Notes: generated by a model not told the origin, from the letters alone. Positions 30,012 through 47,609 are shown, counted from the stretch's first letter. The stretch: DNA of 64,000 nucleotides from Escherichia coli (GCF_024298765.1 NZ_CP101210.1), one strand, 5' to 3'. A program made the numbers and translations.

Positions 30012-30050
30012 CAGTGAGTTGGTAACTGTTAAGCCAAGGGCGGTAGCGTG
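30012..30050 (+). promoter_or_regulatory. JUMPstart element with ops (GGCGGTAGCGTG, 30039-30050) in O-antigen operon leader
   Basis: cagtgagttggtaactgttaagccaagggcggtagcgtg; same 39-bp architecture as the wza leader copy. Confidence 0.85.
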
Positions 30051-30085
30051 TGTTTTGATCCTACCCACGTAATATGGACACAGGC

Positions 30086-30841
30086 CTAAGCGAGGTTCTG
30101 GTTTTCAAATTGTTCCGGACTGAGGCCGCCACACCAACTGTGCCGCCGCCACCGATTGTAATCACATTCGATATAATTAAACACCGTTGCCCGCATTATT
30201 TCCCGGCTGATAAAGTGTTCTCCATGGATACATTCCACTTTCAGCGAATGAAAGAAGCTTTCCACGCAGGCATTATCGTAGCAGCAACCTTTTGCGCTCA
30301 TACTTCCACGCAGATTATGCCGCTTCAGTTGCGCCGTCATGCGTGGCGACATTGACCAGCCAATAACGGCACGTGACCACAGGTCAATGACCACTGCCAG
30401 ATACAGCCAGCCTTCATCTGTACGTAAGTACGTGATGTCTCCTGCCCACTTCTGGTTCGGGCCACTGGCGTAAAAATCCTGCTCCAACAGATTTTCTGAC
30501 ACAGGCAGGCCGTGTGCGCGGTAGCTGACCGGGCTGAACTTCCGGGAGGCCTTTGCCCTCAGTCCCTGACGGCGCAGGCTTGCCGCCACGGTTTTTACGT
30601 TAAAGGGGTAACCCTGAGCACGCAGTTCATCCGTCAGGCGTGGGGCACCGTAACGCTGTTTTGACCGGGTAAAAGCCGCGAGGACAACGCTGTCGCAGTG
30701 TTGGCGGAACTGCTGACGCGTGCTTATCCTTGTCCGCCGCTGACACCACGTATACCAGCCGCTGCGGGCCACCCGGAGCACGCGGCACATTGCTTTGATG
30801 CTGAACTCAGCCTGATGTTTTTCAATAAAGACATACTTCAT
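30086..30841 (-). pseudogene. insF: IS3 OrfB transposase catalytic domain, apparently truncated by in-frame internal deletion (251 aa versus recalled 288 aa)
   Basis: [19 protein letters not shown]...; junction PRMTAQL|KRHNLRG at about 30326/30327; recalled intact OrfB has about 37 extra residues here including HTDRGGQY. Confidence 0.7.
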
Positions 30842-31146
30842 TTCAGGCGCTTCGCGAAGTATGTCGCGGCCTTTTGGAGGATAGCCAGCTCTTCATCCCG
30901 TTCTGCCAGCTGGCGTTTGAGACGTGCAATCTCGGTAGACATCTCCAGTTCACGTTCAGAAGACGTCTGCTGATTTTGCTGTTTACTGCGCCAGTTGTAG
31001 AGCTGTGATTCATACAGGCTGAGTTCACGGGCTGCGGCAGTAACACCGATGCGTTCAGCAAGCTTCAGGGCTTCACTGCGAAATTCAGGCGAATGCTGTT
31101 TACGGGGTTTTTTACTGGTTGATACTGTTTTTGTCATGTGAGTCAC
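30838..31146 (-). CDS. insE: IS3 OrfA (transposase N-terminal HTH protein)
   Basis: 102-aa ORF ...[50 protein letters not shown]...; leucine-zipper-like C-terminus. Confidence 0.9.
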
Positions 31147-31237
31147 CTCTGACTGAGAGTTTACTCACTTAGCCGCGTGTCCACTATTGCTGGGTAAGAT
31201 CATTTTTCTCTCAATCCTCATGATAAAGGAGGTTTAT

Positions 31238-32257
31238 ATGGTGATTTTCGTAACAGGCGGTGCAGGATATATTGGATCCCATACCATACTTGAGTTACTT
31301 AATAATGGTCATGATGCCGTTTCGATAGATAATTTTGCCAATTCCTCTATAGAATCATTAAAAAGAGTAGAGCAAATAACTAATAAGAAAATTATTTCTT
31401 ATCAAGGTGATATCCGTGATAAAAATCTACTTGATGAGATTTTTTCAAGACATCATATCGATGCTGTAATTCATTTTGCATCGTTAAAATCTGTAGGTGA
31501 GTCAAAGTTAAAGCCCTTAGAGTATTATTCTAATAATGTTGGTGGAACTTTAGTATTACTTGAATGCATGAAGAGATATAACATTAATAAAATGATATTT
31601 AGCTCTTCTGCTACTGTTTATGGGAATAACAGTATCCCTCCCCATACGGAAGATAGACGAATTGGTGAAACTACAAACCCATATGGGACATCGAAGTTTA
31701 TAATAGAAATGATTTTGAGTGATTATTGTGATAGCGATAATAATAAATCAGTAATTGCACTACGTTATTTTAATCCAATCGGAGCACATAAGTCCGGGAT
31801 GATTGGTGAAAATCCTAACGGGATTCCTAATAATCTGGTTCCTTATATATCTAAAGTTGCACAAAATCAACTTCCTGTATTAAATATTTATGGCAACGAT
31901 TATCCAACTAAAGATGGTACAGGAGTAAGAGACTATATACATGTCTGTGATTTGGCTAAAGGGCATGTTAAAGCATTAGAATATATGTTTTTAAATGATG
32001 TCAATTATGAGGCTTTTAATTTAGGTACTGGTCAAGGTTATTCTGTTTTAGAGATTGTAAAAATGTTTGAGATAGTCACTAAAAAGAGTATACCTTTTGC
32101 TATTTGTAATAGACGTGAGGGGGATGTTGCTGAGTCATGGGCGTCTGCTGATTTGGCACATGAAAAGCTTTCCTGGAAAGCGGAAAAAAAATTGAAAGAA
32201 ATGATCGAAGATGTATGGCGTTGGCAAACAAAAAATCCAAATGGATATAAAAAATAA
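31238..32257 (+). CDS. UDP-hexose 4-epimerase (GalE/Gne family), first O-antigen gene
   Basis: Start at ATG 31238 with AGGAGG RBS (track ORF begins 31187, overlapping the IS end); 339 aa; TGGAGYIGSHT Rossmann, NPYGTSK, YxxxK; AT-rich. Confidence 0.85.
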   Translation: MVIFVTGGAGYIGSHTILELLNNGHDAVSIDNFANSSIESLKRVEQITNKKIISYQGDIRDKNLLDEIFSRHHIDAVIHFASLKSVGESKLKPLEYYSNNVGGTLVLLECMKRYNINKMIFSSSATVYGNNSIPPHTEDRRIGETTNPYGTSKFIIEMILSDYCDSDNNKSVIALRYFNPIGAHKSGMIGENPNGIPNNLVPYISKVAQNQLPVLNIYGNDYPTKDGTGVRDYIHVCDLAKGHVKALEYMFLNDVNYEAFNLGTGQGYSVLEIVKMFEIVTKKSIPFAICNRREGDVAESWASADLAHEKLSWKAEKKLKEMIEDVWRWQTKNPNGYKK

Positions 32258-32275: not shown

Positions 32276-33292
32276 ATGAAAAATGTTGGTTTTATTGTTA
32301 CAAAATCAGAAATTGGTGGTGCACAAACATGGGTAAATGAAATATCTAACCTTATTAAAGAGGAATGTAATATATTTCTTATTACATCTGAAGAAGGATG
32401 GCTCACACATAAAGATGTCTTTGCTGGAGTTTTTGTCATACCAGGTATTAAAAAATATTTTGACTTCCTTACATTGTTTAAATTGAGAAAAATTTTAAAA
32501 GAAAATAATATTTCAACATTAATAGCAAGTTCTGCTAATGCCGGAGTTTATGCTAGGTTAGTTCGATTACTAGTCGACTTTAAATGTATTTATGTTTCGC
32601 ATGGATGGTCTTGTTTATATAATGGTGGTCGACTAAAATCAATTTTTTGTATTGTGGAGAAATACCTTTCTTTATTAACTGATGTTATATGGTGTGTTTC
32701 CAAAAGTGATGAAAAAAAAGCAATTGAGAAAATTGGTATAAAAGAAACAAAGATAATCACAGTATCGAATTCAGTGCCTCAGATGCCAAGATGTAATAAT
32801 AAACCACTCCAGTATAAAGTTCTGTTTGTTGGTAGGTTAACACACCCTAAGCGCCCCGAATTGTTAGCGAATGTAATATCGAAAAAGCCCCAGTATAGCC
32901 TCCATGTCGTAGGAGGGGGGGAAAGGTTAGAATCATTGAAGAAACAATTCAGTGAATGTGAAAATATTCATTTTATGGGTGAGGTCAATAATTTTTATAA
33001 CTATCATGAGTATGATTTATTTTCACTGATATCCGATAGTGAAGGTTTGCCTATGTCAGGCCTTGAGGCTCACACAGCTGCAATACCACTCCTTTTAAGT
33101 GATGTGGGCGGATGTTTTGAATTAATTGAGGGTAATGGGGTACTTGTGGAAAATACTGAAGACGACATTGGATATAAATTGGATAAAATATTCGATGACT
33201 ATGAAAATTATCGGGAACAGGCAATTCGTGCCTCCGGAAAATTTGTTATCGAGAACTATGCTTCAGCATATAAAAGCATTATTTTAGGTTGA
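32276..33292 (+). CDS. Glycosyltransferase, GT4 family (retaining, GT-B)
   Basis: 338 aa; EX7E-type motif SEGLPMSGLEAHTAAIPLL; AT-rich. Confidence 0.75.
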   Translation: MKNVGFIVTKSEIGGAQTWVNEISNLIKEECNIFLITSEEGWLTHKDVFAGVFVIPGIKKYFDFLTLFKLRKILKENNISTLIASSANAGVYARLVRLLVDFKCIYVSHGWSCLYNGGRLKSIFCIVEKYLSLLTDVIWCVSKSDEKKAIEKIGIKETKIITVSNSVPQMPRCNNKPLQYKVLFVGRLTHPKRPELLANVISKKPQYSLHVVGGGERLESLKKQFSECENIHFMGEVNNFYNYHEYDLFSLISDSEGLPMSGLEAHTAAIPLLLSDVGGCFELIEGNGVLVENTEDDIGYKLDKIFDDYENYREQAIRASGKFVIENYASAYKSIILG

Positions 33293-33318
33293 GTATTTTT
33301 TAGAACAGGAAATGTAAA

Positions 33319-34440
33319 ATGGCTAAAGTCGCTCTCATTACTGGCATAACCGGACAAGACGGTTCTTACCTGGCAGAGTTTCTGCTGGAAAAAGGTTACG
33401 AGGTGCATGGTATTAAGCGTCGTGCATCGTCATTCAACACCGAGCGCGTGGATCACATTTATCAGGATCCGCACACCTGCAACCCGAAATTCCATCTGCA
33501 TTATGGCGACCTGAGTGATACCTCCAACCTGACGCGCATTTTGTGTGAAGTGCAGCCGGATGAAGTGTACAACCTTGGCGCAATGAGTCACGTTGCGGTC
33601 TCTTTTGAGTCACCGGAATATACCGCAGACGTTGATGCGATGGGTACGCTGCGCCTGCTCGAGGCGATCCGCTTCCTCGGTCTGGAAAAGAAAACCCGTT
33701 TCTATCAGGCTTCCACTTCTGAACTGTACGGTCTGGTGCAGGAGATTCCGCAGAAAGAGACCACGCCGTTCTACCCACGCTCTCCGTATGCAGTCGCCAA
33801 ACTGTACGCCTACTGGATCACCGTTAACTACCGCGAATCCTACGGCATGTACGCCTGTAACGGTATTCTCTTTAACCATGAATCCCCGCGCCGCGGCGAA
33901 ACCTTCGTTACCCGCAAAATCACCCGCGCAATCGCCAACATCGCACAGGGGCTGGAGTCGTGCCTGTACCTCGGCAATATGGATTCCCTGCGTGACTGGG
34001 GCCACGCCAAAGACTACGTAAAAATGCAGTGGATGATGCTGCAACAGGAACAGCCGGAAGATTTCGTCATCGCTACCGGCGTTCAGTATTCCGTGCGTCA
34101 GTTCGTGGAAATGGCGGCAGAGCGAGTCGGAATCAAACTGCGTTTTGAAGGCGCAGGTGTAGATGAGAAAGGGATAGTGGTTTCTGTTAATGGTGAGGAT
34201 GCTCCAGCAGTTAAACCTGGAGATGTAATCGTTAAGGTTGACCCGCGTTACTTCCGTCCGGCTGAAGTTGAAACACTGCTCGGCGACCCGACCAAAGCGC
34301 ACGAAAAACTGGGCTGGAAACCGGAAATCACCCTCAGAGAGATGGTGTCTGAAATGGTGGCTAATGACCTCGAAGCGGCGAAAAAACACTCTCTGCTGAA
34401 ATCTCACGGCTACGACGTGGCGATCGCGCTGGAGTCATAA
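33319..34440 (+). CDS. gmd: GDP-mannose 4,6-dehydratase (O-antigen copy)
   Basis: 373 aa; near-identical to colanic acid gmd apart from a divergent patch at about 34110-34255. Confidence 0.95.
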
Positions 34441-34442
34441 GC

Positions 34443-35408
34443 ATGAGTAAACAACGCATTTTTATCGCTGGCCATCGTGGGATGGTCGGTTCTGCCATCA
34501 GGCGGCAGCTCAAACAGCGCGGTGATGTGGAACTGGTATTACGCACCCGCGACGAGCTGAACCTGCTGGACAGCCGCGCGGTGCATGATTTCTTTGCCAG
34601 CGAACGCATTGACCAGGTCTATCTGGCGGCGGCGAAAGTGGGCGGCATTGTTGCCAACAACACCTATCCGGCGGATTTCATCTACCAGAACATGATGATT
34701 GAGAGCAACATCATTCACGCCGCGCATCAGAACGACGTGAACAAACTGCTGTTTCTCGGATCGTCCTGTATCTACCCGAAACTGGCAAAACAGCCGATGG
34801 CAGAAAGCGAGTTATTGCAGGGCACGCTGGAGCCGACCAACGAGCCTTACGCCATTGCCAAAATCGCCGGGATCAAACTGTGCGAATCTTACAACCGCCA
34901 GTATGGACGCGATTACCGCTCAGTCATGCCGACCAACCTGTACGGGCCGCACGACAACTTCCACCCGAGTAACTCGCACGTGATCCCTGCATTGCTGCGT
35001 CGCTTCCACGAGGCGACGGCACAGAATGCGCCGGACGTGGTGGTGTGGGGCAGCGGTACACCGATGCGCGAATTTCTGCACGTTGATGATATGGCAGCGG
35101 CGAGCATTCATGTGATGGAGCTGGCGCACGAAGTCTGGCAGGAGAACACCCGGCCGATGCTGTCGCACATTAACGTCGGCACGGGCGTTGACTGCACTAT
35201 CCGTGAGCTGGCGCAAACCATCGCCAAAGTGGTGGGTTACAAAGGTCGGGTGGTTTTTGATGCCAGCAAACCGGATGGTACGCCGCGCAAACTGCTGGAT
35301 GTGACGCGCCTGCATCAGCTTGGCTGGTATCACGAAATCTCACTGGAAGCGGGGCTTGCCAGCACTTACCTGTGGTTCCTTGAGAATCAAGACCGCTTTC
35401 GGGGGTAA
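34443..35408 (+). CDS. fcl: GDP-L-fucose synthase (O-antigen copy)
   Basis: 321 aa; nucleotide-identical to colanic acid fcl across the whole gene by line-by-line comparison. Confidence 0.95.
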
Positions 35409-35911
35409 TGATGTTTTTACGTCAGGAAGACTTTGCCACGGTAGTGCGCTCCACCCCGCTTGTCTCCCTCGACTTTATTGTTGAGAACAGTCGCGGCGAG
35501 TTTCTGCTTGGCAAAAGAACCAACCGCCCGGCGCAGGGTTACTGGTTTGTGCCGGGAGGGCGCGTGCAGAAAGACGAAACGCTGGAAGCCGCATTTGAGC
35601 GGCTGACGCTTGCGGAACTGGGGTTGCGTCTGCCGATAACAGCAGGCCAGTTTTACGGTGTCTGGCAGCACTTTTATGACGATAACTTCTCCGGCTCGGA
35701 TTTCACCACTCACTATGTGGTGCTCGGTTTTCGCATCAGAGTAGCGGAAGAAAAGCTGTTACTGCCGGATGAGCAGCATGACGATTACCGCTGGCTGACG
35801 CCGGACGCGTTGCTCGCCAGTGACAATGTTCACGCTAACAGCCGAGCTTATTTTAATCATGATCCAAGAGCTGTTATTGGTTTAGATAAAAAGGATGTCA
35901 AAAATGTCTGA
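35408..35911 (+). CDS. gmm: GDP-mannose mannosyl hydrolase (O-antigen copy, divergent C-terminus)
   Basis: 167 aa; first ~145 aa near-identical to colanic gmm, then diverges after ...NSRAYF; 3' end overlaps manC. Confidence 0.85.
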
Positions 35912-37352
35912 TGTACCGTTGATTGCTGTTGTAATGGCTGGTGGTACGGGTAGCCGTCTTTGGCCCCTCTCAAGAGAGCACTATCCGAAGCAATTTCTGC
36001 AATTATCAGGTGAGAATACTTTATTACAGTCAACCTTATTACGACTATCCCCGCTTTCTTGCGAAACTCCATTAGTAATAACAAATGAGCAACATCGCTT
36101 TGTGGTTGCAGAACAATTACGTCAAATTGATCAGTTAAGAGATAATATTATTCTTGAGCCATGTGGAAGAAATACGGCTCCCGCCATAGCTCTTTCAGCA
36201 TTTACAGCTTTGAAGCGTAATGAACAACAGGATCCTATTTTGTTGATTCTCGCAGCTGACCATATTATAAGCAAAGCGGATGTTTTTTGTGACGCTATTC
36301 AAAAATCGAAAACTGTAGCTGAACAGGGGAATATTGTAACCTTTGGGATTATACCTGAATATGCGGAAACAGGTTATGGTTATATAAAAAAAGGAGATCC
36401 TTTTAAAATTTTACCAAATATTACTGATGATAAGTTTTATCATGTCCAACAATTTATTGAAAAACCTAACCATTCGACGGCAGAAGAGTATGTTTCCACA
36501 GGAGAATATCTCTGGAATAGTGGAATGTTTATGTTTAAAGCATCAGTATATTTAGAGGAATTGAAAAAGCACAGGCCTGATATATACGAAATCTGTGAGC
36601 AGACAGCTTCATTATCCTATAACGATCTTGATTTCATACGATTGCCTAAACATATTTTCCAAGATTGTCCGTCGGAATCAATTGATTTTGCGGTTATGGA
36701 AAAAACAAAAAATTGCATTGTTCGTCCAGTAGACATCGGGTGGAGTGATGTAGGCTCTTGGCATTCTTTGTGGGATATTAGTGATAAAACGCAGGATGGA
36801 GATGTCTGTAAAGGTGATATTCTAACTTATAACACTAAAAACAATTATATATATTGTGAATCAGCCCTAGTGGCTGCTGTAGGTGTAGAAGATATAGTTA
36901 TTGTTCAAACAAAAGATGCTATTCTCGTGTCCAAAAAAACTGAGGTTCAGGATGTAAAAAAAATAGTAGAAATGCTTAAGGAACATGAGCGCTCAGAGTA
37001 TATATCGCATCGAGAGGAGTTTCGGCCTTGGGGAAAATTTGATGCGATAGATCAGGGAGAACGATATAAAGTTAAAAAGATAGTTGTGAAACCCGGCGAA
37101 GGACTATCCTTACGAATGCACCATCATCGTTCTGAGCATTGGATTGTTCTTTCCGGCACAGCAAAAGTAACTTTAAACGATAAAACAGTATTGCTTGCTG
37201 CAAATGAATCAATCTACATTCCTCTAGGAGCAACGTATAGTCTTGAAAATCCAGGAATAATCCCTCTGAATCTTATTGAGGTTAGTTCAGGCGATTATTT
37301 AGGTGAGGATGATATTGTACGGCAAAAAGAACGCTACAGAATAGATGACTAA
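35895..37352 (+). CDS. manC: Mannose-1-phosphate guanylyltransferase (O-antigen copy, divergent and AT-rich)
   Basis: 485 aa; [12 protein letters not shown] nucleotidyltransferase motif; clearly diverged from cpsB in protein and composition. Confidence 0.9.
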
Positions 37353-37355
37353 TAT

Positions 37356-38735
37356 ATGAAAAAATTAACCTGCTTTAAAGCCTATGATATTCGCGGGAAA
37401 TTAGGTGAAGAACTGAATGAAGATATCGCCTGGCGCATTGGTCGCGCCTATGGCGAATTTCTCAAACCGAAAACCATTGTGTTAGGCGGTGATGTCCGCC
37501 TCACCAGCGAAACCTTAAAACTGGCGCTGGCAAAAGGTTTGCAGGATGCGGGCGTCGATGTGCTGGATATTGGTATGTCCGGCACCGAAGAGATCTATTT
37601 CGCCACGTTCCATCTCGGCGTGGATGGCGGCATTGAAGTTACCGCCAGTCATAATCCGATGGATTACAACGGCATGAAACTGGTGCGCGAAGGGGCTCGC
37701 CCGATCAGCGGCGATACCGGACTGCGCGATGTCCAGCGTCTGGCAGAAGCCAACGACTTTCCTCCCGTTGATGAAACCAAACGCGGTCGCTATCAGCAAA
37801 TCAACCTGCGTGACGCTTACGTTGATCACCTGTTCGGTTATATCAGTGTCAAAAACCTTACGCCGCTCAAGCTGGTGATTAACTCCGGGAACGGCGCGGC
37901 GGGTCCGGTGGTGGACGCCATTGAAGCCCGCTTTAAAGCCCTCGGCGCACCGGTGGAATTAATCAAAGTACACAACACGCCGGACGGCAATTTCCCCAAC
38001 GGTATTCCTAACCCGTTGCTGCCGGAATGCCGCGACGACACCCGTCATGCGGTCATCAAACACGGCGCGGATATGGGCATTGCCTTTGATGGCGATTTTG
38101 ACCGCTGTTTCCTGTTTGACGAAAAAGGGCAGTTTATCGAGGGCTACTACATTGTCGGCTTGCTGGCACAAGCGTTCCTCGAAAAAAATCCCGGCGCGAA
38201 GATCATCCACGATCCACGTCTCTCCTGGAACACCGTTGATGTGGTGACTGCCGCAGGCGGCACCCCGGTAATGTCGAAAACCGGACACGCCTTTATTAAA
38301 GAACGGATGCGCAAGGAAGACGCCATCTACGGTGGCGAAATGAGCGCCCACCATTACTTCCGTGATTTTGCTTACTGCGACAGCGGCATGATCCCGTGGC
38401 TGCTGGTCGCCGAACTGGTGTGTCTGAAAGGAAAAACGCTGGGCGAACTGGTGCGCGACCGGATGGCAGCATTTCCGGCAAGCGGTGAGATCAACAGCAA
38501 ACTGGCGGACCCCGTTGAGGCGATTAACCGCGTGGAACAGCATTTTAGCCGTGAGGCGCTGGCGGTGGATCGCACCGATGGCATCAGTATGACCTTTGCC
38601 GACTGGCGCTTTAACCTGCGCTCCTCCAACACCGAACCGGTGGTGCGCCTGAATGTGGAATCGCGCGGTAATATAGCATTAATGAATGAACAGGTTGAAT
38701 TTATTACAAAATTTTTAAACGGTGATGGTTTATGA
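37356..38735 (+). CDS. manB: Phosphomannomutase (O-antigen copy)
   Basis: 459 aa; near-identical to cpsG in the stretches compared except the last ~20 codons. Confidence 0.95.
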
Positions 38736-39289
38736 GAATATTAAAAATTATTATAAGTGTATTGTTGTTTATAAAAAAGAAAAGAAAAAAAATACCGGAC
38801 TCAGCAATAATAAACTTAACAAGTCATGTGGATAAACATTCAGTAATTGGAAAGTGTTGTTATATAGGGAAAAATGTATATATAACTAAAAGTATCATTG
38901 GGAATTACACATCTATTGCAAATAATGTCTCAATTGGTCAAGGTGAACATAAGGTTGATGCAGTTAGTACAAGTTCGATGTTCTACGATAATGAATTCGA
39001 AGATTTAACACAAAACGATTGTATTATAGGTAATGATGTGTGGCTCGGTACAGGAGTTACTGTATTACGAGGGGTAAGAATTGGTGATGGTGCTATTATT
39101 GGTGCTAATGCCGTTGTCACAAAAAATATTCCAGATTATTGTATTGCGGTAGGAGTACCTGCGAAAGTAATCAAAAGAAGATTACCAGTAAATGTTACTG
39201 AAAAAATAAAAGAGACTAAATGGTGGAATGATGAATATGAAGTGGCGAAGGATAAAATTATTTGCTTAACAAATGAATTAAAGTTATGA
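38732..39289 (+). CDS. O-acetyltransferase, hexapeptide-repeat (LbH) family
   Basis: 185 aa; repeats such as [31 protein letters not shown]; 4-bp overlap with manB; AT-rich. Confidence 0.75.
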
Positions 39290-40728
39290 ACAAAAAAGAA
39301 ATAATTATCTTGCTTATAGCCAGAATTCTACAGATTCTCATTAGTTTATTCACAATGAGATTGATGACAACGATTTTAAGCAATGAGCAAATGGGGGAGT
39401 ATTATATTTTTTTAGCAATCTATATGTTGGCATCATTGGGTATAATTAATCCAATAGGACAATATGTGAATCGCAACACTTATTTATGGTGGAGAGAGGG
39501 AGTACTAACCCAATATATTGATCGATATATTAATTTTGTTTTGTGTTTTTCGCTTATTTATGTGATTTTGTATGGACTTGGTGAATGTTTGTTTAAAGGA
39601 ATAAATACACCATTTTGGATGTTATTCTGTTATTTATATATAGTATGTTTATCTCTAAACCAATTTCTATTACATACTTTAAATATCTTAAATTTTAAGA
39701 TAGTATTTTCCATTATGACGTTGATGACTTCTGTATTAAGTTTATCAGGGGCATATTTATTTATTGAATATAGCATAGCTAAACAAACTGTTAGTATATA
39801 TTACTGGGTTGCAGGAATCATAATTGGCAATTTTATTTCTTTATGTATATGCGTTGTATATCTGAGATGTAGAAATACGTTCCAAAAATCAATTCCTAAA
39901 TCTATCAATGTAAGCATAAAAGAAGTTTTTAATTTTTGCTGTCCAATTATGATAACAACTTTGTTCATTTGGTTTCAAAGCTCTGGATATCGATTTGCTG
40001 TCGAGCAAATGTTTGGCTTAAAGTTTTTAGGTATACTAGCTGTATGTTTTGCTGTGTCAGGGCAAATAATGTCAGTGATTGAGTCTTTAGTGACACAGAT
40101 ATTTCAACCAACATTATTTAAGCATATGGATAATGTCAAAAATAGAAAGCAACATCTAGATTTTTATATTAATGAAAATATAGCAATTTATGCTAGTGTA
40201 TTATTTTTTTGTACTTTCTTTATGCGCGAAATATTTTTGGTTTTAGTTGACAATAAATATCTTCCTTACTTCTATATAGGTATAATAGCTTTATGGAGTG
40301 AATTTTTTAGGATATCAACCAATACTTTGTCTTTAGTGTTTTTTTGCGAAAAGAAAATGAAGGTGGGAATTTTTCCTTATTTAATTGGCTCATTAAGTCT
40401 GGCTTTTTCGATCGTCTTGTTCAGGTTGTTAAATGTAAATTTGGGTATTTTAATAGCTTTTGCTATTGGGATTGCACAATTGGCCTCCTTTATCGTTTGC
40501 TTAATTACGGTAAAAAAAATCTCTTATTTTAAAATAAATTCCATCTTCTTAATGAAGAGGATAATAATAGTACTACCTTCTGTGTTAATTGCCCATTGCA
40601 TTCCTAAATTTGAAATGATTAATGCTGTCCATTTTATTATCATTTTCGGTGTCGGTTTATTTTACTTAATCTCTTTAGTTACTTCTTTTATGTTTATTAA
40701 ACAACCAGGAGGTGTTTATGGAAGTTAA
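39286..40728 (+). CDS. wzx: O-antigen flippase (Wzx-like polytopic membrane protein)
   Basis: 480 aa, very hydrophobic with about 12 predicted TM segments; position in O-antigen cluster. Confidence 0.7.
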   Translation: MNKKEIIILLIARILQILISLFTMRLMTTILSNEQMGEYYIFLAIYMLASLGIINPIGQYVNRNTYLWWREGVLTQYIDRYINFVLCFSLIYVILYGLGECLFKGINTPFWMLFCYLYIVCLSLNQFLLHTLNILNFKIVFSIMTLMTSVLSLSGAYLFIEYSIAKQTVSIYYWVAGIIIGNFISLCICVVYLRCRNTFQKSIPKSINVSIKEVFNFCCPIMITTLFIWFQSSGYRFAVEQMFGLKFLGILAVCFAVSGQIMSVIESLVTQIFQPTLFKHMDNVKNRKQHLDFYINENIAIYASVLFFCTFFMREIFLVLVDNKYLPYFYIGIIALWSEFFRISTNTLSLVFFCEKKMKVGIFPYLIGSLSLAFSIVLFRLLNVNLGILIAFAIGIAQLASFIVCLITVKKISYFKINSIFLMKRIIIVLPSVLIAHCIPKFEMINAVHFIIIFGVGLFYLISLVTSFMFIKQPGGVYGS

Positions 40729-41569
40729 AATTATTGGGGGACTTGGCAATCAGATGTTTCAGTATGCAACTGCATTTGCTATTGCAAAAAGAACTCATCA
40801 AAATTTGACTGTTGATATATCTGATGCAGTAAAATATAAAACTCATCCATTAAGATTAGTTGAATTATCTTGTAGTTCAGAATTTGTAAAAAAAGCATGG
40901 CCATTTGAAAAATACTTATTTTCCGAAAAAATCCCACATTTCATGAAAAAAGAAATGTTCAGAAAGCATTACGTTGAGAAAAGTTTAGAGTATGATCCAG
41001 ATATTGATACTAAAAGTATAAATAAAAAAATCGTCGGTTATTTTCAAACTGAAAAATATTTTAAGGAATTTAGGCATGAGTTGATAAAGGAATTTCAACC
41101 TAAAACTAAGTTTAATAGTTATCAAAATGAATTGCTTAATTTAATTAAAGAAAATGATACTTGTTCATTGCATATTAGAAGAGGTGATTATGTTTCCAGT
41201 AAAATAGCAAATGAAACTCATGGTACATGTAGTGAAAAATATTTTGAACGTGCCATTGATTATTTGATGAATAAAGGTGTTATTAATAACAAAACCCTTC
41301 TCTTCATTTTTTCTGATGATATAAAGTGGTGCAGGGAAAATATATTTTTTAATAATCAAATATGTTTTGTTCAAGGTGATGCTTATCATGTTGAATTAGA
41401 TATGTTGCTTATGAGTAAATGTAAAAATAATATAATTTCAAATAGTTCTTTCAGTTGGTGGGCTGCTTGGTTAAATGAAAATAAAAATAAAACAGTAATT
41501 GCTCCGAGTAAATGGTTTAAGAAAGATATTAAACATGATATTATTCCCGAATCGTGGGTAAAATTATGA
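40718..41569 (+). CDS. Alpha-1,2-fucosyltransferase (GT11 family)
   Basis: Start at ATG 40718 with AGGAGG RBS; GT11 signature HIRRGDYV; N-terminal GGLGNQMFQYA; co-located with GDP-fucose genes. Confidence 0.8.
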   Translation: MEVKIIGGLGNQMFQYATAFAIAKRTHQNLTVDISDAVKYKTHPLRLVELSCSSEFVKKAWPFEKYLFSEKIPHFMKKEMFRKHYVEKSLEYDPDIDTKSINKKIVGYFQTEKYFKEFRHELIKEFQPKTKFNSYQNELLNLIKENDTCSLHIRRGDYVSSKIANETHGTCSEKYFERAIDYLMNKGVINNKTLLFIFSDDIKWCRENIFFNNQICFVQGDAYHVELDMLLMSKCKNNIISNSSFSWWAAWLNENKNKTVIAPSKWFKKDIKHDIIPESWVKL

Positions 41570-42432
41570 TGGAAGATACAAAAGAATTAATAACAGTAAT
41601 AATGCCTGTTTATAATGCGGAAAAATACATATATGAATCTATAAAAAGTATTTTGGTGCAGTCATATTCTAATTTTGAGTTCATCATTATTAATGATGGC
41701 TCAAAAGATTCTTCTGGAAAAATTATTGAAAACTTTCTCGATGATACGAGGATACGATATATAAATCGTGAAAATAAAGGTTTGGTCTTCACTCTGAATG
41801 AAGCTATTTCGTTATCAAGAGGAAATTATATTGCTCGAATGGATGCTGATGATATTTCACATCCCCTACGATTAGAAAAGCAACTAAATTTTCTACTAGA
41901 AAATCCAGATATAGCCGTAGTTGGGTGTTCTTCTTTTATTATTGACCAAAATTCTAAGGTTATAAATACGCGAAAACCACCTTTGACACCTTTAGTAAAT
42001 AAAGCATTGCTATTTTTTGGCCCAACATTAACTCATCCATCAGTGATGTTTAATAAAATACTACTTGGAGATCAGCTTTACTACAGTGATAAATATCTTC
42101 ATGTTGAAGATTATGACTTGTGGTTGAGGTTAATTAATCAATACAAAATAGCTAATATCAAAGATGTTCTTTTTTACTATCGAATTAATGAGTCAGGTGT
42201 TTCACAGACTAATTTATTTGAACAAAAAATTAATGCTGCTAAAGCATATAGTGAAATTAAATATGATGGTAAGTATAAAGACTTACTGGAAAAGTTAGAA
42301 GTCATACACCTGAGACATGAAATGGAGAAAAGTAAGGTCTTTCAGGCCGTATTATATATATTATTAAAGTATGAACATGATTCATTATTATTTTTAAAAT
42401 TAGGATATATATTACGATGGTTAATAAAATAA
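41554..42432 (+). CDS. Glycosyltransferase, GT2 family
   Basis: 292 aa; VIMPVYNAEKYI...IIINDGSKDSS and ARMDADD (DXD-type) motifs. Confidence 0.8.
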   Translation: MGKIMMEDTKELITVIMPVYNAEKYIYESIKSILVQSYSNFEFIIINDGSKDSSGKIIENFLDDTRIRYINRENKGLVFTLNEAISLSRGNYIARMDADDISHPLRLEKQLNFLLENPDIAVVGCSSFIIDQNSKVINTRKPPLTPLVNKALLFFGPTLTHPSVMFNKILLGDQLYYSDKYLHVEDYDLWLRLINQYKIANIKDVLFYYRINESGVSQTNLFEQKINAAKAYSEIKYDGKYKDLLEKLEVIHLRHEMEKSKVFQAVLYILLKYEHDSLLFLKLGYILRWLIK

Positions 42433-43316
42433 AAATAGCACTAATAAGTACAGAAAAAGCTAATCTTCCTGAAATTGAAGCCTATAAGGAGTATTTTTCG
42501 GAGCCATTTGATGTCTCTGTTGTTAATAAAAATGATGATTTAAGTTGTTATGATGTTTTATGGTACTTTATGGGGTTTAAAGGTAATAAAATAAACTCTA
42601 AACAGTTCTTGATTCATGAGTTTTCCTCAATTTCAGTACCACCATTTCCAAAAATAAAAAACGTTATCAAGAAATTTATTTTGCCTAAACCTAATTTGAG
42701 GGTTTTTTTAAATAAATCAGTGCAACAACAATTCGATTTTAATGATAGAGTTCCTTTTTGTTACCGAGATATGGGCGTCAATTATAAACCAGTAGTTGAA
42801 AGAAATAATAAAAAATATGATATATTATATGTGGGGGCAATTACTGGTAGAAAACTAGATGATGCATTAAATTTGATTTTGTCATATAAATTAGATTGTA
42901 AAATCGCAATTCTTGGTAAAGTGCCAGAAAAGTTCAAAGAAAAATATAAAAATACTGATGTTATATTTCTTGGGCAAGTTCCTTATAATCGGGTAGCCAC
43001 CATTATTGCAGAATCTAACTTGTGTTTAAATTGGATTCCGAATATTTATCCATATAACATGCAGACATCAACAAAATTCTTAGAGTATCTGGCACAAAAT
43101 AAACAAATAATATCGAATAGCTACCCTTGGGTTGACTCTTATTGTCAACAGCATAATATTGACTATATTAATGTCAATGATTCCAATTCTATTCGACAAG
43201 CATTGAACTCAGTCATAATCCAAAAATCAACACATATCCCCCCAAGTTGGCGAGAGGTTATTATGAATAGCGGGATAGAGAATCACATTAAATCATATTT
43301 TGAGGTAACAAAATGA
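42417..43316 (+). CDS. Putative glycosyltransferase (family not recognisable from motifs)
   Basis: 299 aa, AT-rich, 16-bp overlap with upstream GT2 gene; C-terminal region loosely resembles a GT-B C-terminal domain. Confidence 0.5.
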   Translation: MVNKIKIALISTEKANLPEIEAYKEYFSEPFDVSVVNKNDDLSCYDVLWYFMGFKGNKINSKQFLIHEFSSISVPPFPKIKNVIKKFILPKPNLRVFLNKSVQQQFDFNDRVPFCYRDMGVNYKPVVERNNKKYDILYVGAITGRKLDDALNLILSYKLDCKIAILGKVPEKFKEKYKNTDVIFLGQVPYNRVATIIAESNLCLNWIPNIYPYNMQTSTKFLEYLAQNKQIISNSYPWVDSYCQQHNIDYINVNDSNSIRQALNSVIIQKSTHIPPSWREVIMNSGIENHIKSYFEVTK

Positions 43317-44356
43317 TTTCTTACGGAGTGCTATTTCTCTTCTCTTATATCAATGCTGTACTTCAGAAGAGAGTAACCGTAACGTTACTATTTTTTATAA
43401 TGATAATTGTTTCTTTCTTTAAATATAATATTGGATTTGATTGGGGGAATTATCATGAAATTTACCTTCAGCAAGGAGATGGCTTTTTTTTTAATGAACC
43501 CCTATTTTCTCTCTTAATTATTCTTTCCAATAAGGTTGCATTAGAATATAAATATTTTATATCAATGTGCTCATTAATTACACTGATTGTTTATTATTCT
43601 GGTATGCGGTGTTTTGCAAGAGATATAAAAGAGTTAGCTTTAGCATTAACTTATTTTGTTGTCTCTTATTGCTACTTTGAACACTTTAATATTATTCGAC
43701 AAGCTTTAGCAATCGCTTTATTCTTTTATAGTTGGAAATATATTATTGAGACTAACTTTATAATGTATAGCCTCTTTATTTTTTTTGCATCTATGATTCA
43801 TGCGGCGGCGGTTGTATTGCTCCCATTTTACTTTTTCCTTAGAATTGATAATTTTAAACCTGTATATTATGGTATAGTGGTCTTATTTATTATTATTGTT
43901 GTTAGATTCGATATTAACAGCATCCTTTTAAGTTCACTTAATTTATTTAAAAATTTCGATTTTGTAGCCAGGTATTTAGCAAATTCAACAGATTTGGCTG
44001 ACTTTGCATCAAAAAAATCTGATCTTGGATTAAGTAAGATATACCCAGCAATTATATTTGTTTTCTGTTGTTTTTGGGGAGGGATTAGGTTAGAGTCTCG
44101 AAGAGACTATGTTTTTTTTAATGCTGGCTTTATTGCAATAACTTTACTGCTCTTAAGCTATCAGGTTGATATTTTGTTTAGATTTTTCTCTTTTTTTGAG
44201 ACTTCATTTGTCTTGTTGTACTGCATTATTTTTTCTGGTTTTAATAAAAAAAGTAAAATTATACTGCATATGGTTAATTTAATTGTATATACGGTAATGA
44301 CATTTAACATGTTATCAGTAATGGGCTTGATTCCTTATGAATCATACATTTTCTAA
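43313..44356 (+). CDS. wzy: O-antigen polymerase (Wzy-like polytopic membrane protein)
   Basis: 347 aa, highly hydrophobic and Phe/Ile/Leu-rich, very AT-rich; 4-bp overlap with upstream gene. Confidence 0.6.
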   Translation: MISYGVLFLFSYINAVLQKRVTVTLLFFIMIIVSFFKYNIGFDWGNYHEIYLQQGDGFFFNEPLFSLLIILSNKVALEYKYFISMCSLITLIVYYSGMRCFARDIKELALALTYFVVSYCYFEHFNIIRQALAIALFFYSWKYIIETNFIMYSLFIFFASMIHAAAVVLLPFYFFLRIDNFKPVYYGIVVLFIIIVVRFDINSILLSSLNLFKNFDFVARYLANSTDLADFASKKSDLGLSKIYPAIIFVFCCFWGGIRLESRRDYVFFNAGFIAITLLLLSYQVDILFRFFSFFETSFVLLYCIIFSGFNKKSKIILHMVNLIVYTVMTFNMLSVMGLIPYESYIF

Positions 44357-44837
44357 TAAGCTTCCCTCAGTTGTTTGTTGTATAGTAATATTTTAATATC
44401 ATTGCAGTGTGTAATTATTGTCAATAAGCTAATTTCTGTTATTTGCATGATTAATTCAGTTTGCAATGCTTGATGTAAAAAGATAAAGTGCACCCGTTTA
44501 CACAATGTTTATTTTGGCATGTCAAGTATAAGTTCTAAATAATACGTTTGTAATGTTTAGCATGTAAACATAATAGTTAAATAATATTAAACATGCAACA
44601 TGCCATTTGTTATTCTAATAAAACATATGTGTTGTGTGAATTATTTAATGTGGAAAGTGGTTGCGTATTATAAATTGTTCATATTGACGTTTAAGTCTTT
44701 TATAACTCCATGCTTGCATGTTAAAAACATTTCGCTATATATTCGCTATATATTATGGTAGGTGGTTTTTATCTAGGCAGATTTGTCTATTTAACTCTAA
44801 ATCTAAATCGCTTAAGAAAGTATGAGTAGGAGTATTT

Positions 44838-45857
44838 ATGGCTATTCTCGTTACAGGTGGTGCTGGTTATATTGCATCACATACTATACTGAGTTTGATA
44901 GAGCAGGGTAATGAAGTAATTATTATTGATAATTTATCAAATTCATATTATGATTCGTTATTGAAAATAAAAGAGATTACTGGATGTGATTGTCTTTTTT
45001 ATAAAGGAGATATCCTTGACAAAAAACTCTTGCTAAAAATATTTGATGAAAATAATATCACTGCTGTGATGCATTTTGCTGGTGCAAAGTCTGTAAGTGA
45101 ATCTGTTATCAGACCTTTGCAATACTATCGAAATAATGTCTCTGGCACTTTTTCTTTAGTTGAGGCAATGGAGGAGTCTGGTGTAGAAAATTTAATATTT
45201 AGCTCTTCAGCAACTGTCTATGGTGAGCCAAAGATTATTCCTGTGAATGAAAGTTGTGCTATAGGTGGTACTACAAATCCGTATGGAACGTCCAAGTTAT
45301 TTGTAGAGAACTTTTTGCGGGATTATTCTAAGGCATCCCCTAATTTTAAAACTATAGTATTAAGATATTTTAACCCTATCGGTGCTCACTCATCTGGAAA
45401 AATAGGTGAAGATCCTAACGGAATTCCGAATAACTTGATGCCCTTTATATGCCAGGTTGCTATCGGTAAACAAAAAACGCTCAAGATCTACGGAAATGAT
45501 TATCCTACTAAAGATGGTACTGGGATTCGCGATTATATTCATGTTATGGATCTTGCTGAAGGTCATGTTGCTGCATTAAATAATATTAATCAAGGAGCTA
45601 ATTATAGAGTTTACAACCTTGGAACAGGAATTGGATACTCTGTGTTGGAATTATTAGAAGCATTTCAGAAAGTTACAACTCGGAGAGTTCCCTATGTTTT
45701 TACTAAAAGGCGTTCAGGTGATATCGCTGAATGTTGGTCTGATCCTACCAAAGCGTATGAAGAATTAGGATGGAAAGCAAGGCGAGGGTTAGAAGATATG
45801 ATTCGTGATGCATGGAATTGGCAGCAAAAAAATCCAAATGGATTTAAGAAAGTTTAA
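44838..45857 (+). CDS. UDP-hexose 4-epimerase (GalE/Gne family), last O-antigen gene
   Basis: 339 aa; TGGAGYIASHT, NPYGTSK, IYGNDYPTKDGTGIRDYIHV; paralogous to the 31238 gene. Confidence 0.85.
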   Translation: MAILVTGGAGYIASHTILSLIEQGNEVIIIDNLSNSYYDSLLKIKEITGCDCLFYKGDILDKKLLLKIFDENNITAVMHFAGAKSVSESVIRPLQYYRNNVSGTFSLVEAMEESGVENLIFSSSATVYGEPKIIPVNESCAIGGTTNPYGTSKLFVENFLRDYSKASPNFKTIVLRYFNPIGAHSSGKIGEDPNGIPNNLMPFICQVAIGKQKTLKIYGNDYPTKDGTGIRDYIHVMDLAEGHVAALNNINQGANYRVYNLGTGIGYSVLELLEAFQKVTTRRVPYVFTKRRSGDIAECWSDPTKAYEELGWKARRGLEDMIRDAWNWQQKNPNGFKKV

Positions 45858-45963
45858 TAAAAATGAAACGATATATTAAGTGTTAGCTTGTTTAATTAAT
45901 TTAAAGTTAATATTATTTACATTAATATGTAATGAAAGTGATATTCTATGACAGGAGTAAACA

Positions 45964-47370
45964 ATGTCAAAGCAACAGATCGGCGTAGTCGGTATGGCAG
46001 TGATGGGGCGCAACCTTGCGCTCAACATCGAAAGCCGTGGTTATACCGTCTCTATTTTCAACCGTTCCCGTGAAAAGACGGAAGAAGTGATTGCCGAAAA
46101 TCCAGGCAAGAAACTGGTTCCTTACTATACGGTGAAAGAGTTTGTTGAATCTCTGGAAACGCCTCGTCGCATCCTGTTAATGGTGAAAGCAGGTGCAGGC
46201 ACGGATGCTGCTATTGATTCCCTCAAGCCATACCTCGATAAAGGTGACATCATTATTGATGGTGGTAATACCTTCTTCCAGGATACCATTCGTCGTAACC
46301 GTGAGCTTTCTGCCGAAGGTTTTAACTTCATTGGTACCGGTGTCTCCGGTGGTGAAGAAGGCGCGCTGAAAGGTCCTTCCATCATGCCTGGTGGGCAGAA
46401 AGAAGCCTATGAACTGGTTGCACCGATCCTGACCAAAATCGCCGCCGTTGCTGAAGATGGCGAACCGTGCGTTACCTATATTGCTGCCGATGGCGCGGGT
46501 CACTATGTGAAGATGGTTCACAACGGTATTGAATACGGTGATATGCAACTGATTGCTGAAGCCTATTCTCTCCTGAAAGGCGGCCTGAATCTTTCTAACG
46601 AAGAACTGGCACAGACCTTTACCGAGTGGAATAACGGTGAACTGAGCAGCTACCTGATCGACATCACCAAAGACATCTTCACTAAAAAAGATGAAGACGG
46701 TAACTACCTGGTTGATGTGATCCTGGATGAAGCGGCTAACAAAGGTACCGGTAAATGGACCAGCCAGAGCGCGCTGGATCTCGGAGAACCGCTGTCGCTG
46801 ATTACCGAGTCTGTGTTTGCACGTTATATCTCTTCTCTGAAAGATCAGCGTGTTGCAGCGTCTAAAGTTCTCTCTGGTCCGCAAGCGCAGCCTGCTGGCG
46901 ACAAGGCTGAGTTCATCGAAAAAGTTCGTCGTGCTCTGTATCTGGGCAAAATCGTTTCTTACGCCCAAGGCTTCTCTCAGCTGCGTGCTGCGTCTGAAGA
47001 GTACAACTGGGATCTGAACTACGGCGAAATCGCGAAGATTTTCCGTGCTGGCTGCATCATCCGTGCGCAGTTCCTGCAGAAAATCACCGATGCTTATGCC
47101 GAAAATCCGCAGATCGCTAACCTGCTGCTGGCTCCGTACTTCAAGCAAATTGCCGATGACTACCAGCAGGCGCTGCGTGATGTCGTTGCTTATGCAGTAC
47201 AGAACGGTATCCCGGTTCCGACCTTCGCGGCTGCGGTTGCCTATTATGACAGCTACCGCGCCGCAGTTCTGCCTGCAAACCTGATCCAGGCACAGCGTGA
47301 CTATTTCGGTGCGCATACTTATAAGCGCATTGATAAAGAAGGTGTGTTCCATACTGAATGGCTGGATTAA
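45964..47370 (+). CDS. gnd: 6-phosphogluconate dehydrogenase, decarboxylating
   Basis: 468 aa; N-terminal [19 protein letters not shown]-binding motif. Confidence 0.97.
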
Positions 47371-47395
47371 TCTGATTTAACCAACAATAAAATTG

Positions 47396-47429
47396 AGGCC
47401 CGGCGTATATTGCACCGGGCTTTTTTTTG
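47396..47429 (+). terminator. Rho-independent terminator after gnd
   Basis: GC hairpin GCCCGG...CCGGGC followed by a T8 run. Confidence 0.8.
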
Positions 47430-47609
47430 CCAAATATCTTATAGACTAAATTTCACTGCTTAATATTAACTTAATAAATATCAGCTATTCTTATAAAGAA
47501 AATCTGAATTGTTTTTCGTTGCGTTGACCATCTGACAACGTAGCGTTAAAACTTTTAACTCTTATCAGGATGCTAAAAACATCATGATTCACAGTTAAGT
47601 TAATTCTGA

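Follow-up and report, generated by a model that had tools for sequence, protein, structure and literature searches.

A hybrid-form O128 O-antigen cluster of Escherichia coli very probably encodes the alpha-1,2-fucosyltransferase WbsJ

The ORF at 40718-41569 of the window, by which we mean the whole stretch of 64,000 nucleotides of Escherichia coli DNA that was analysed, is very probably wbsJ, the gene for the GT11 inverting fucosyltransferase of a Wzx/Wzy-dependent O128 O-antigen cluster, present here in a hybrid form. Both wbsJ and the O128 cluster are already known, and the enzyme was characterised years ago.

40718..41569, plus strand: wbsJ, predicted GT11 GDP-L-fucose:beta-galactoside alpha-1,2-fucosyltransferase, 283 aa plus stop (Pfam PF01531)

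The ORF was confirmed as a real gene. Its ATG at 40718 has an AGGAGG directly upstream (CCAGGAGGTGTTTATG), and the RefSeq wbsJ start in O128 genomes is this same ATG. A longer version of the ORF, beginning at a GTG at 40712, was also called; this is unlikely to be the true start, and the ATG is probably the correct one. The gene is preceded by wzx, which overlaps its start by 11 nt, and followed by wbsK. Both motifs that the preliminary description had read from this ORF were located in the 283-aa product, GGLGNQMFQYA at residues 7-17 (nt 40736-40768) and HIRRGDYV at residues 152-159 (nt 41171-41194). A third motif, SNSSFSWWAAWL, occupies aa 241-252.

The GT11 membership that had been claimed from these motifs was borne out when the HMM check was run. 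PF01531 (Glyco_transf_11) matches WbsJ over profile positions 34-295 of 298 with 115.5 bits, against a cut-off of 23.9 bits (E 3.7e-33), which is far above chance. More than 7,700 homologs were found at E<=1e-5, and PF01531 was present in 120 of the 120 matches listed. The HxRRxD motif (H152-I-R154-R155-G-D157 in WbsJ) is kept in all 38 aligned homologs; residues H152, R154, R155 and D157 are invariant in this alignment, as are the N-terminal GGxGNQ and the C-terminal S-x-x-S-W-W. This motif, common with alpha-1,6-fucosyltransferases, has a part in catalysis and matters for activity, its first Arg being critical (PMC4202792). The AlphaFold model of WbsJ (pLDDT 94.1, pTM 0.92) has AtFUT1, NodZ, FUT8 and POFUT1 as its top Foldseek matches in the PDB (E 3e-08 to 1e-06, probability 1.00), and the predicted fold is that of a GT-B-type fucosyltransferase. 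Sequence, profile and fold searches of the PDB with WbsJ found no solved GT11 structure, and the NCBIfam profile search returned no model for GT11 (WbsJ), wzx or wzy.

WbsJ fucosylates beta-galactosides in alpha-1,2 linkage, with GDP-beta-L-fucose as the donor and terminal beta-galactose as the acceptor; it needs no metal and has been used for globo-H synthesis (PMC4202792). NMR of its products showed that the terminal Gal carries the alpha-1,2 fucose (PMC12723683). The protein encoded in the window is 282/283 identical to WP_000453202.1, the WbsJ allele of both the O128:H27 and the O128ac:H12 reference genomes, the sole change being G79E. This residue falls in a variable alignment column and in a lower-confidence surface segment of the AlphaFold model; the E79 allele was found on 112 contigs, compared with 961 for the G79 allele. 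The WbsJ of E. coli O128:B12, which Li et al. (2008, Biochemistry) reportedly characterised, is UniProt Q6XQ53. Going by the allele of the O128 genomes, the WbsJ described here would be identical to that entry bar G79E; it has the same place between wzx and wbsK, the same 283 aa, and an HxRRxD motif starting at H152.

Because WbsJ is a single residue away from the allele of the characterised enzyme, a Fuc-alpha1,2-Gal (H-like) branch in the O-antigen can be considered well supported. An H-type epitope of this kind had been proposed in the preliminary description, and the identification of the gene as wbsJ of O128 agrees with it. The linkage does not follow from GT11 membership by itself, as at least one alpha-1,3-fucosyltransferase lies inside the family (PMC4202792). 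The protein might thus have another specificity, acting as an alpha-1,3-fucosyltransferase like HhFT2 of Helicobacter hepaticus or transferring some other 6-deoxyhexose. We regard this as extremely improbable in view of the near-complete identity to the common O128 allele, whose products are alpha-1,2 by NMR, and of the position of the one substitution. What is more, the cluster makes GDP-fucose and holds no other GDP-deoxyhexose pathway.

The genes around wbsJ are those that had been described before, namely a GDP-fucose pathway, an acetyltransferase, a GT4, a GT2 and a fourth glycosyltransferase, together with wzx (39286-40728) and wzy (43313-44356). All ORFs of the cluster are intact and equal in length to the RefSeq genes. 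Apart from the two genes at the 5' end, which are considered below, the cluster and its flanks contain the following.

27647-28642, plus strand: gnu, GlcNAc-PP-undecaprenol 4-epimerase (ORF; RefSeq name in syntenic genomes)
28885-29778, plus strand: galF (ORF; RefSeq name in syntenic genomes)
33319-34440, plus strand: gmd, GDP-L-fucose supply (ORF, RefSeq name)
34443-35408, plus strand: fcl, GDP-L-fucose supply (ORF, RefSeq name)
35411-35911, plus strand: gmm, GDP-L-fucose supply (ORF, RefSeq name)
35904-37352, plus strand: manC, GDP-L-fucose supply (ORF, RefSeq name)
37356-38735, plus strand: manB, GDP-L-fucose supply (ORF, RefSeq name)
38732..39289, plus strand: putative O-acetyltransferase, 185 aa, left-handed beta-helix, CatB/Vat/WbbJ-like (Pfam Hexapep and NCBIfam)
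39286..40728, plus strand: wzx, O128-family O-unit flippase, 480 aa (Pfam Polysacc_synt_3; the exact protein is named 'O128 family O-antigen flippase')
41566..42432, plus strand: wbsK, GT2 glycosyltransferase, 288 aa (Pfam Glycos_transf_2, E 1.6e-33)
42417..43316, plus strand: wbsL, fourth glycosyltransferase, 299 aa, compact GT-B fold (AlphaFold), divergent from GT4
43313..44356, plus strand: wzy, O128-family O-antigen polymerase of the EpsG family, 347 aa (Pfam EpsG, E 8.8e-40)
44838..45857, plus strand: second galE/gne-like 4-epimerase, at the 3' end of the cluster, 339 aa (NCBIfam GalE, E 1.5e-137)
45964-47370, plus strand: gnd (ORF, RefSeq name)
47619-48785, plus strand: ugd (ORF, RefSeq name)
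48931-49908, plus strand: wzzB, chain-length regulator, intact (ORF, RefSeq name)

The serogroup can be read from the central block. The segment 38732-44356 (acetyltransferase-wzx-GT11-GT2-GT-wzy) matches 22 of 5,426 complete E. coli genomes, each at 99.2% identity or more, and in all 22 PGAP annotates wzx and wzy as 'O128 family'. These genomes include strain 90-9281, labelled O128:H27 in its record, and the O128ac:H12 strain AW1.7. Wzx has one substitution and Wzy two relative to strain 90-9281, a near-identity to O128 reference alleles of the kind on which in-silico O-typing is based. In the published O128:B12 cluster, the Wzy entry (UniProt Q6XQ50) shares 344/347 residues with the Wzy described here, and the name of another entry, Q6XQ55 ('Putative O-acetyltransferase'), is attached to the exact acetyltransferase sequence. 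Proteins of the O128 reference genomes are identical to the published-cluster entries Q6XQ55, Q6XQ61 and Q6XQ50. The sequencing of the E. coli O128 cluster is reportedly due to Shao et al. (2003). Judged by these genes, the strain from which the DNA came belongs genetically to O128, a serogroup that the preliminary description had named along with two others and the one to which wbsJ belongs; wzx and wzy match this fucose-containing serogroup and not one whose O-unit lacks fucose.

The suggestion that the gene content would fit an O127-like cluster is not borne out. It holds only for gne, the GT4 gene and gmd, which are of the O90/O127/O86 type and 98-99.8% identical to the O127 and O90/O127 clusters, but not for the acetyltransferase-to-wzy block, where protein identity is 23-39%. 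If the cluster were O127-like throughout, its GT11 would be of the WbiQ/WbwK type and, as in O127, the fucose would become part of the main chain. The two clusters do have in common a GT11, a GT2, an acetyltransferase of the CatB-like kind and a GDP-fucose pathway. However, identity to the proteins of the O127:H6 strain E2348/69 is 32.5% for Wzx, 22.7% for Wzy, 34.6% for the GT11 (WbiQ), 33.6% for the GT2 (WbiP) and 38.7% for the acetyltransferase, the gene order differs, and wbsL and the 3' gne are additional here. The wzx and wzy genes, named for the O128 family by PGAP, do not match the O90/O127 alleles. A distant blastn search with the wbsJ gene matched the 22 O128 genomes only and no O127, O86 or O90 genome, and the 3' half of the cluster gave no megablast or blastn match to any O127 genome. 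We leave almost no probability to this reading, and an O127-like cluster of the O90/O127/O86 family is refuted for the serogroup-defining genes. The O90/O127 and O86 clusters (WbiQ and WbwK/WbnK as GT11, WbiP as GT2, WbnH/WbiN as GT4) follow the same logic toward Fuc-alpha1,2-Gal-beta1,3-GalNAc, with a GDP-fucose pathway, a GT4 acting on GalNAc-PP-Und, a DxDD GT2 and a GT11, while their wzx and wzy are unrelated to those described here at the serotyping level. In O127, whose unit is a tetrasaccharide, fucose belongs to the main chain (PMC7685785); in O128, with a pentasaccharide unit, it forms a side branch (PMC10304059).

The O128 cluster in the window does not have the full gene content of the published O128:B12 cluster. 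The first glycosyltransferase differs, and the cluster is therefore a variant form of O128. Its 5' end consists of two genes.

31238..32257, plus strand: gne/galE-like UDP-hexose 4-epimerase, first cluster gene, part of an O90/O127-type 5' module, 339 aa (NCBIfam GalE TIGR01179, E 5e-127)
32276..33292, plus strand: GT4 glycosyltransferase, ortholog of WbnH/WbiN (O86/O127), 338 aa (331/338 identical to WbnH, PDB 4XYW)

Nine of the 22 complete O128 genomes, one of them recorded as O128:H27, have the cluster type found here (form 1), 11 have form 2, and two are deletion derivatives without the 5' region. Form 2 is the layout of the published O128:B12 cluster (Q6XQ50-Q6XQ61) and of, for example, strain AW1.7. 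The two forms share 99-100% DNA identity from manC to the 3' gne, in the order manC, manB, acetyltransferase, wzx, wbsJ, wbsK, wbsL, wzy and 3' gne. In form 2 the interval from galF to gmd holds a lone 373-aa GT4 (WbsH, Q6XQ61), whereas the cluster described here has gne, the 338-aa WbnH ortholog, only 25% identical to WbsH, and a gmd of the O90/O127 type. The 338-aa GT4 thus occupies the place of an unrelated protein, WbsH. The WbsH type was seen in the published O128:B12 cluster and in the O128-like cluster of E. albertii, and the type with gne and a WbnH ortholog in the cluster studied here. The E. albertii O128-like cluster (L010, L011) encodes a GT11 88% identical to WbsJ and a WbsL homolog at 89%. 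Its order is GT4, gmd, gmm, manC, manB, acetyltransferase, wzx, GT11, GT2, GT, wzy and gne, with no fcl gene called within the cluster; this is the form-2 layout, with a WbsH-like GT4 (59% to WbsH) right after galF.

The 5' gne product has 98.2% protein identity to the E2348/69 copy, and the gene is absent in form-2 clusters. The 3' gne, about 66% identical to it in DNA, occurs in both O128 forms (annotated in L001 and L004). Over gne-GT4-gmd the cluster is 98.2% identical to O127:H6 E2348/69 and 99.5% identical to the O90/O127 strain KFu022. Sliding identity in gmd is 99.5-99.8% to KFu022 and 86-95% to O128 form 2, while manC shows 99.8-100% to O128 form 2 and 78% to O127, with the recombination junction between O90/O127-like and O128-like sequence near 35.9-36.1 kb. 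The cluster is a hybrid, O128 from manC to the 3' gne and O90/O127-type from gne through gmd. The O90/O127-type segment probably also extends through gmm.

The nature of the first glycosyltransferase may bear on the structure of the O-unit. WbnH, which has been crystallised, is a GalNAc-transferase that forms GalNAc-alpha1,3-GalNAc-PP-Und (PMC4506291), and its proposed substrate-binding residues H109, K192, E256 and E264 are conserved in the 338-aa GT4. With a WbnH ortholog in place of WbsH, the second sugar in the hybrid form would likely be alpha-GalNAc rather than alpha-Gal, and the fucosylated branch would be unchanged. We propose, tentatively and at somewhat less than even confidence, that two types of O128 cluster exist with non-orthologous first glycosyltransferases, and that form 1 arose by homologous recombination with an O90/O127 type in the shared GDP-fucose genes, gaining alpha-GalNAc as the second sugar while keeping the H-like branch; such a difference could underlie the O128 sub-factors (ab versus ac). 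In the full-text literature searched, which did not extend to the primary O128 papers, we found nothing usable on the O128 linkage formula or on the genetics of O128ab/O128ac. Alternatively, the two forms may make the same O-unit, the WbnH-like GT4 adding alpha-1,3-Gal as WbsH presumably does, so that the 5' swap would have no structural effect. Typing or annotation places both forms in O128, and between the O128:H27 and O128ac:H12 strains WbsK is identical and WbsL differs by two residues; downstream glycosyltransferases so nearly identical are most easily explained by a same acceptor. On the other hand, the GT4 closely matches the GalNAc-adding WbnH down to the proposed substrate-binding residues, has little similarity to WbsH, and comes with an extra gne epimerase, as in O86 and O127. 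We consider a common O-unit doubtful.

At the start of the cluster, the leader carries a regulatory element and an insertion sequence.

30012..30050, plus strand: JUMPstart element with ops GGCGGTAG (ops at 30040-30047; Rfam RF01707, 52.5 bits, gathering score 35)
30056..31202, minus strand: IS3 copy, 1147 bp (Pfam HTH_Tnp_1 and rve; orfA 30838-31146, truncated orfB 30086-30841)

JUMPstart/ops lies upstream of the first gene, as in an RfaH/JUMPstart-controlled operon, but the 1147-bp IS3 separates it from gne. The ops sequence recruits RfaH to O-antigen operon transcripts. IS3 begins 5 nt past JUMPstart, ends 35 nt before the gne ATG, and is flanked by a TTT duplication. The same junction was found only in strains LHM10-1 and CP52E, both complete genomes with intact clusters; relative to the LHM10-1 copy, the one described here has a 111-bp in-frame deletion. 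No IS3 is present at JUMPstart in O128:H27, in O127 or in most O128 genomes. The insertion could lower or abolish expression of the operon, in which case the genes would be intact and the O128 antigen, with its Fuc-alpha1,2-Gal epitope, poorly expressed or absent. The placement of IS3 between JUMPstart and gne and its rarity among O128 genomes speak for such a loss, as does its antisense orientation, which leaves it untranslated when read through. An untranslated antisense stretch normally invites Rho-dependent polarity, which RfaH-modified polymerase resists. Since ops lies upstream of IS3, RfaH can still load; moreover, a search of both strands of the IS3 region turned up no terminator-like site, and the downstream genes are all intact. 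The retention of the insertion next to intact clusters in LHM10-1 and CP52E argues against a dead, decaying operon. Loss of expression seems to us unlikely.

The remaining glycosyltransferases and the acetyltransferase allow an assembly pathway to be outlined. The DxDD motif of WbsK, which is 33.6% identical to WbiP of O127, reads DADD (aa 93-96), and for GT2 enzymes bearing this motif, beta1-3 transfer of Gal or Glc onto GalNAc or GlcNAc has been reported (PMC4202792). The motif suggests that WbsK is a beta-1,3-galactosyltransferase making the Gal-beta1,3-GalNAc acceptor for WbsJ. WbsL itself had no match in the Pfam profile search, but Glyco_trans_1_4 was matched by 28 of 33 of its relatives, and its AlphaFold model (pLDDT 90) matched the GT-B enzymes AviGT4, TarM, PimB' and SenB in Foldseek. 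Judging by matching lengths of their longest contigs, relatives of WbsL lie on the same contigs as relatives of WbsJ, and wbsJ, wbsK and wbsL are adjacent in E. albertii. By elimination, WbsL would be the beta-1,4-GalNAc transferase. The acetyltransferase gene is translationally coupled to manB and to wzx (ATGA in both cases), and its protein is identical in both O128 forms; an intact, conserved gene of this kind makes O-acetylation of the O-unit plausible.

We infer every step of the pathway that follows; the linkages are those of the O128 formula reportedly given by Sengupta (1995) and Shao (2003). GalNAc-PP-undecaprenol would come from WecA and Gnu, the latter supplying the GalNAc-PP-Und primer, and the GT4 would add the second sugar in alpha-1,3 linkage. 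WbsL would then add beta-GalNAc, WbsK beta-1,3-Gal, and WbsJ would cap this Gal with Fuc-alpha1,2, giving an H type 4/globo-H-like Fuc-alpha1,2-Gal-beta1,3-GalNAc-beta branch. The hexapeptide acetyltransferase may add O-acetyl groups. Finally, the unit would be flipped by Wzx and polymerised by Wzy, with WzzB setting the chain length. For O128, a tetrasaccharide backbone with one side branch has been described, composed of L-Fuc, D-Gal and D-GalNAc, with GalNAc as the initial sugar (PMC10304059).

WbsJ is now in routine use for the synthesis of H antigens, globo-H and fucosylated milk oligosaccharides. The IS3 copy after ops offers a natural test of how far an insertion is tolerated in RfaH-dependent read-through. 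The hybrid cluster is a clear natural case of O-antigen diversification by recombination in duplicated GDP-fucose genes, although its added value is modest, and wzx/wzy typing calls both forms O128, though one sugar of the repeat unit may not be the same in the two. The source strain should display an H-like Fuc-alpha1,2-Gal-beta1,3-GalNAc branch, which bears on serotyping, on the mimicry of blood groups and on the binding of lectins or norovirus.

The ORF singled out in the preliminary description as a GT11 fucosyltransferase gene is real, and its family membership is borne out. Its position and that of its one divergent codon are as follows.

40718-41569, plus strand: wbsJ ORF, 283 residues
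40952-40954: codon 79 of wbsJ, Glu in the window and Gly in both O128 reference strains and in E. albertii

An AGGAGG ribosome-binding site lies 7 nt 5' of the ATG at 40718, which is also the RefSeq start in O128 genomes. Of the two motifs originally quoted, GGLGNQMFQYA spans residues 7-17 and HIRRGDYV residues 152-159, and the protein matches nearly the full Pfam profile Glyco_transf_11 (E 3.7e-33; gathering score 23.9 bits). More than 7,700 proteins are homologous at E≤1e-5, and all 120 among the matches listed carry PF01531. All 38 sequences of an alignment share H152, R154, R155 and D157, together with GGxGNQ in the N-terminal and SxxSWW in the C-terminal part. The AlphaFold model built from this alignment is confident (pLDDT 94, pTM 0.92), and the solved folds closest to it, AtFUT1, NodZ, FUT8 and POFUT1, all belong to GDP-fucose-dependent enzymes; sequence and profile searches found no solved GT11 structure in the PDB. 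The neighbours listed for the gene were all confirmed: gmd, fcl, gmm, manC, manB, an acetyltransferase (hexapeptide type), wzx, wzy (EpsG type), a GT4, a GT2 and a fourth glycosyltransferase.

The family and the proposed epitope hold; the suggested fit to an O127-like cluster does not. Among 5,426 complete genomes of E. coli, only 22 match the serogroup-specific block 38732-44356, each at an identity of at least 99.2%, and wzx and wzy carry the PGAP name "O128 family" in all 22. Strains 90-9281 (recorded as O128:H27) and AW1.7 (recorded as O128ac:H12) are among them, and a sensitive blastn search of the E. coli genomes with the wbsJ gene gave no match beyond these 22. The acetyltransferase equals UniProt Q6XQ55, an entry from the published O128:B12 cluster, at every residue, and Wzy is identical to Q6XQ50 from the same cluster at 344 of 347 positions. 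In contrast, the counterparts in O127:H6 strain E2348/69 share 32.5% (Wzx), 22.7% (Wzy), 34.6% (WbiQ, the GT11), 33.6% (GT2) and 38.7% (acetyltransferase) protein identity with those of the window, where the genes also stand in a different order. Judged by its serogroup-defining genes, the cluster is thus O128 and not O127-like.

The GT11 protein of O128 is WbsJ, a well-known enzyme. It is an alpha-1,2-fucosyltransferase of beta-galactosides that is active without a divalent metal, requires the HxRRxD motif and has been employed in the synthesis of the globo-H hexasaccharide (PMC4202792); in a 2025 NMR study it placed fucose on terminal Gal in alpha-1,2 linkage (PMC12723683). The O128 unit consists of L-Fuc, D-Gal and D-GalNAc, arranged as a four-sugar backbone that bears a single side branch, and its initial sugar is GalNAc (PMC10304059). 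A single substitution, G79E, separates the window's WbsJ from the allele common to the O128:H27 and O128ac:H12 genomes. Residue 79 is a highly variable column across the GT11 family and falls in a segment of lower confidence in the model; E79 occurs on 112 contigs versus 961 for G79, and strain E41, which also has E79, carries wbsJ DNA 100% identical to that of the window. The Fuc-alpha1,2-Gal epitope is therefore supported by the activity reported for WbsJ, by this near-identity and by the fucosylated branch of the O128 unit. The unit, said to go back to Sengupta (1995) and Shao (2003), reportedly reads ->6)[L-Fuc-a1,2]-Gal-b1,3-GalNAc-b1,4-Gal-a1,3-GalNAc-b1->, in which case the branch would be an H type 4 (globo-H-like) determinant.

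Comparison of window 31203-36100 with AW1.7, KFu022 (O90/O127) and E2348/69 shows that O128 clusters come in two forms. In AW1.7 and ten other complete-genome records (form 2), galF is followed by one 373-aa GT4 that is exactly UniProt Q6XQ61, the published WbsH. The window carries a galE-like gne there, followed by a GT4 of 338 aa, and nine complete genomes are arranged in the same way, the O128:H27 strain and several ETEC strains among them. The 338-aa GT4 is only 25% identical to WbsH of O128:B12, whereas it shares 331 of 338 residues with O86 WbnH (PDB 4XYW), four proposed substrate-binding residues being kept; the product of WbnH is GalNAc-alpha1,3-GalNAc-PP-undecaprenol (PMC4506291). Sliding-window identity reveals a mosaic. 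From 33319 to about 35900, gmd is 99.5-99.8% and fcl and gmm are 96-99% identical to KFu022, with gmd 86-95% identical to form 2; at 36100-37300 the identity is 99.8-100% to form 2 and 78% to O127. This switch shows that the window's form is a recombinant with its junction near the gmm/manC boundary (~35.9-36.1 kb), and the borrowing of the 5' module from an O90/O127-type cluster accounts for the initial O127-like impression. The E. albertii O128-like cluster, unlike the window, has the WbsH-type arrangement, which suggests that this is the older one. At the end of manB (38300-38735 region) the shared GDP-mannose/fucose genes give way to the low-GC serogroup-specific block: over the last ~150 bp of manB G+C falls sharply from about 0.55 to about 0.30, and identity drops to 89% with O127 and rises to 99% with form 2.

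WbsK, the GT2, has DADD at residues 93-96. GT2 enzymes with DxDD, including O127 WbiP, add Gal or Glc in beta-1,3 linkage to GalNAc or GlcNAc (PMC4202792), and WbsK probably forms Gal-b1,3-GalNAc, the acceptor for WbsJ. WbsL (42417-43316) has no match of its own in Pfam or NCBIfam and lacks a clear EX7E motif; Glyco_trans_1_4 is matched by 28 of its 33 relatives, and its model is a confident, compact GT-B fold (pLDDT 90). By elimination, WbsL would add the beta-GalNAc. Because the O128 structure, which we take to contain just one alpha-D linkage, is served by two apparent GT-B/GT4-like enzymes, WbsL may be an inverting GT-B enzyme of an undescribed family. O-acetylation of the unit by the putative acetyltransferase is plausible, since its gene is intact, shows translational coupling with both manB and wzx, encodes the identical protein in the two O128 forms and also occurs in the related E. 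albertii cluster.

Several further observations concern the surroundings of these genes. In the E. albertii cluster (L010/L011, 3426-5196), gmm lies 155 bp after gmd with no fcl called between, and GDP-fucose synthase would need another source, e.g. the colanic acid cluster. In the window, the colanic-acid gmd-fcl-gmm (13509-16044) and the O-antigen copy (33319-35854) form 2.5-kb direct repeats, 97.0% identical, and cpsG and manB are 96.3% identical. The O128 genomes E41 (L008, 4588-10004) and OkiPb01675 (L009, 4590-10004) have lost wcaI through the first O-antigen glycosyltransferase, so that wcaF is directly followed by gmd-fcl-gmm-manC-manB-acetyltransferase-wzx. The repeats are the likely substrate of these deletions, and both strains are predicted to lack colanic acid as well as O128 antigen. 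Separating wzy from the 3' gne is an AT-rich, non-coding stretch of 481 bp (44357-44837) that contains an 11-bp tandem duplication (ttcgctatata x2) at 44731-44752, which probably explains the 11 bp by which the window exceeds O128:H27 over 31203-51000.

Upstream of the operon two elements are found.

30012-30050: JUMPstart/ops element (Rfam RF01707)
30056-31202, minus strand: IS3 copy, 1147 bp, with a TTT target duplication

The IS3 sits 5 nt past the JUMPstart element and 35 nt ahead of the gne ATG (31238). Its junction is common only to strains LHM10-1 and CP52E, and orfB of the window's copy has an additional 111-bp in-frame deletion flanked by 10-bp microhomology (30326-30335). A scan of the IS3 region for terminator-like sites gave none. 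As RfaH can still load 5' of the IS3, read-through into the O-antigen operon is likely; lowered O-antigen expression is possible.

The presence of wbsJ in O128 clusters is established knowledge, to which the recombinant cluster and the IS3 copy add two points of modest weight; the GT4 swap in the hybrid predicts that the second sugar would be alpha-GalNAc in the window's form versus alpha-Gal in form 2.
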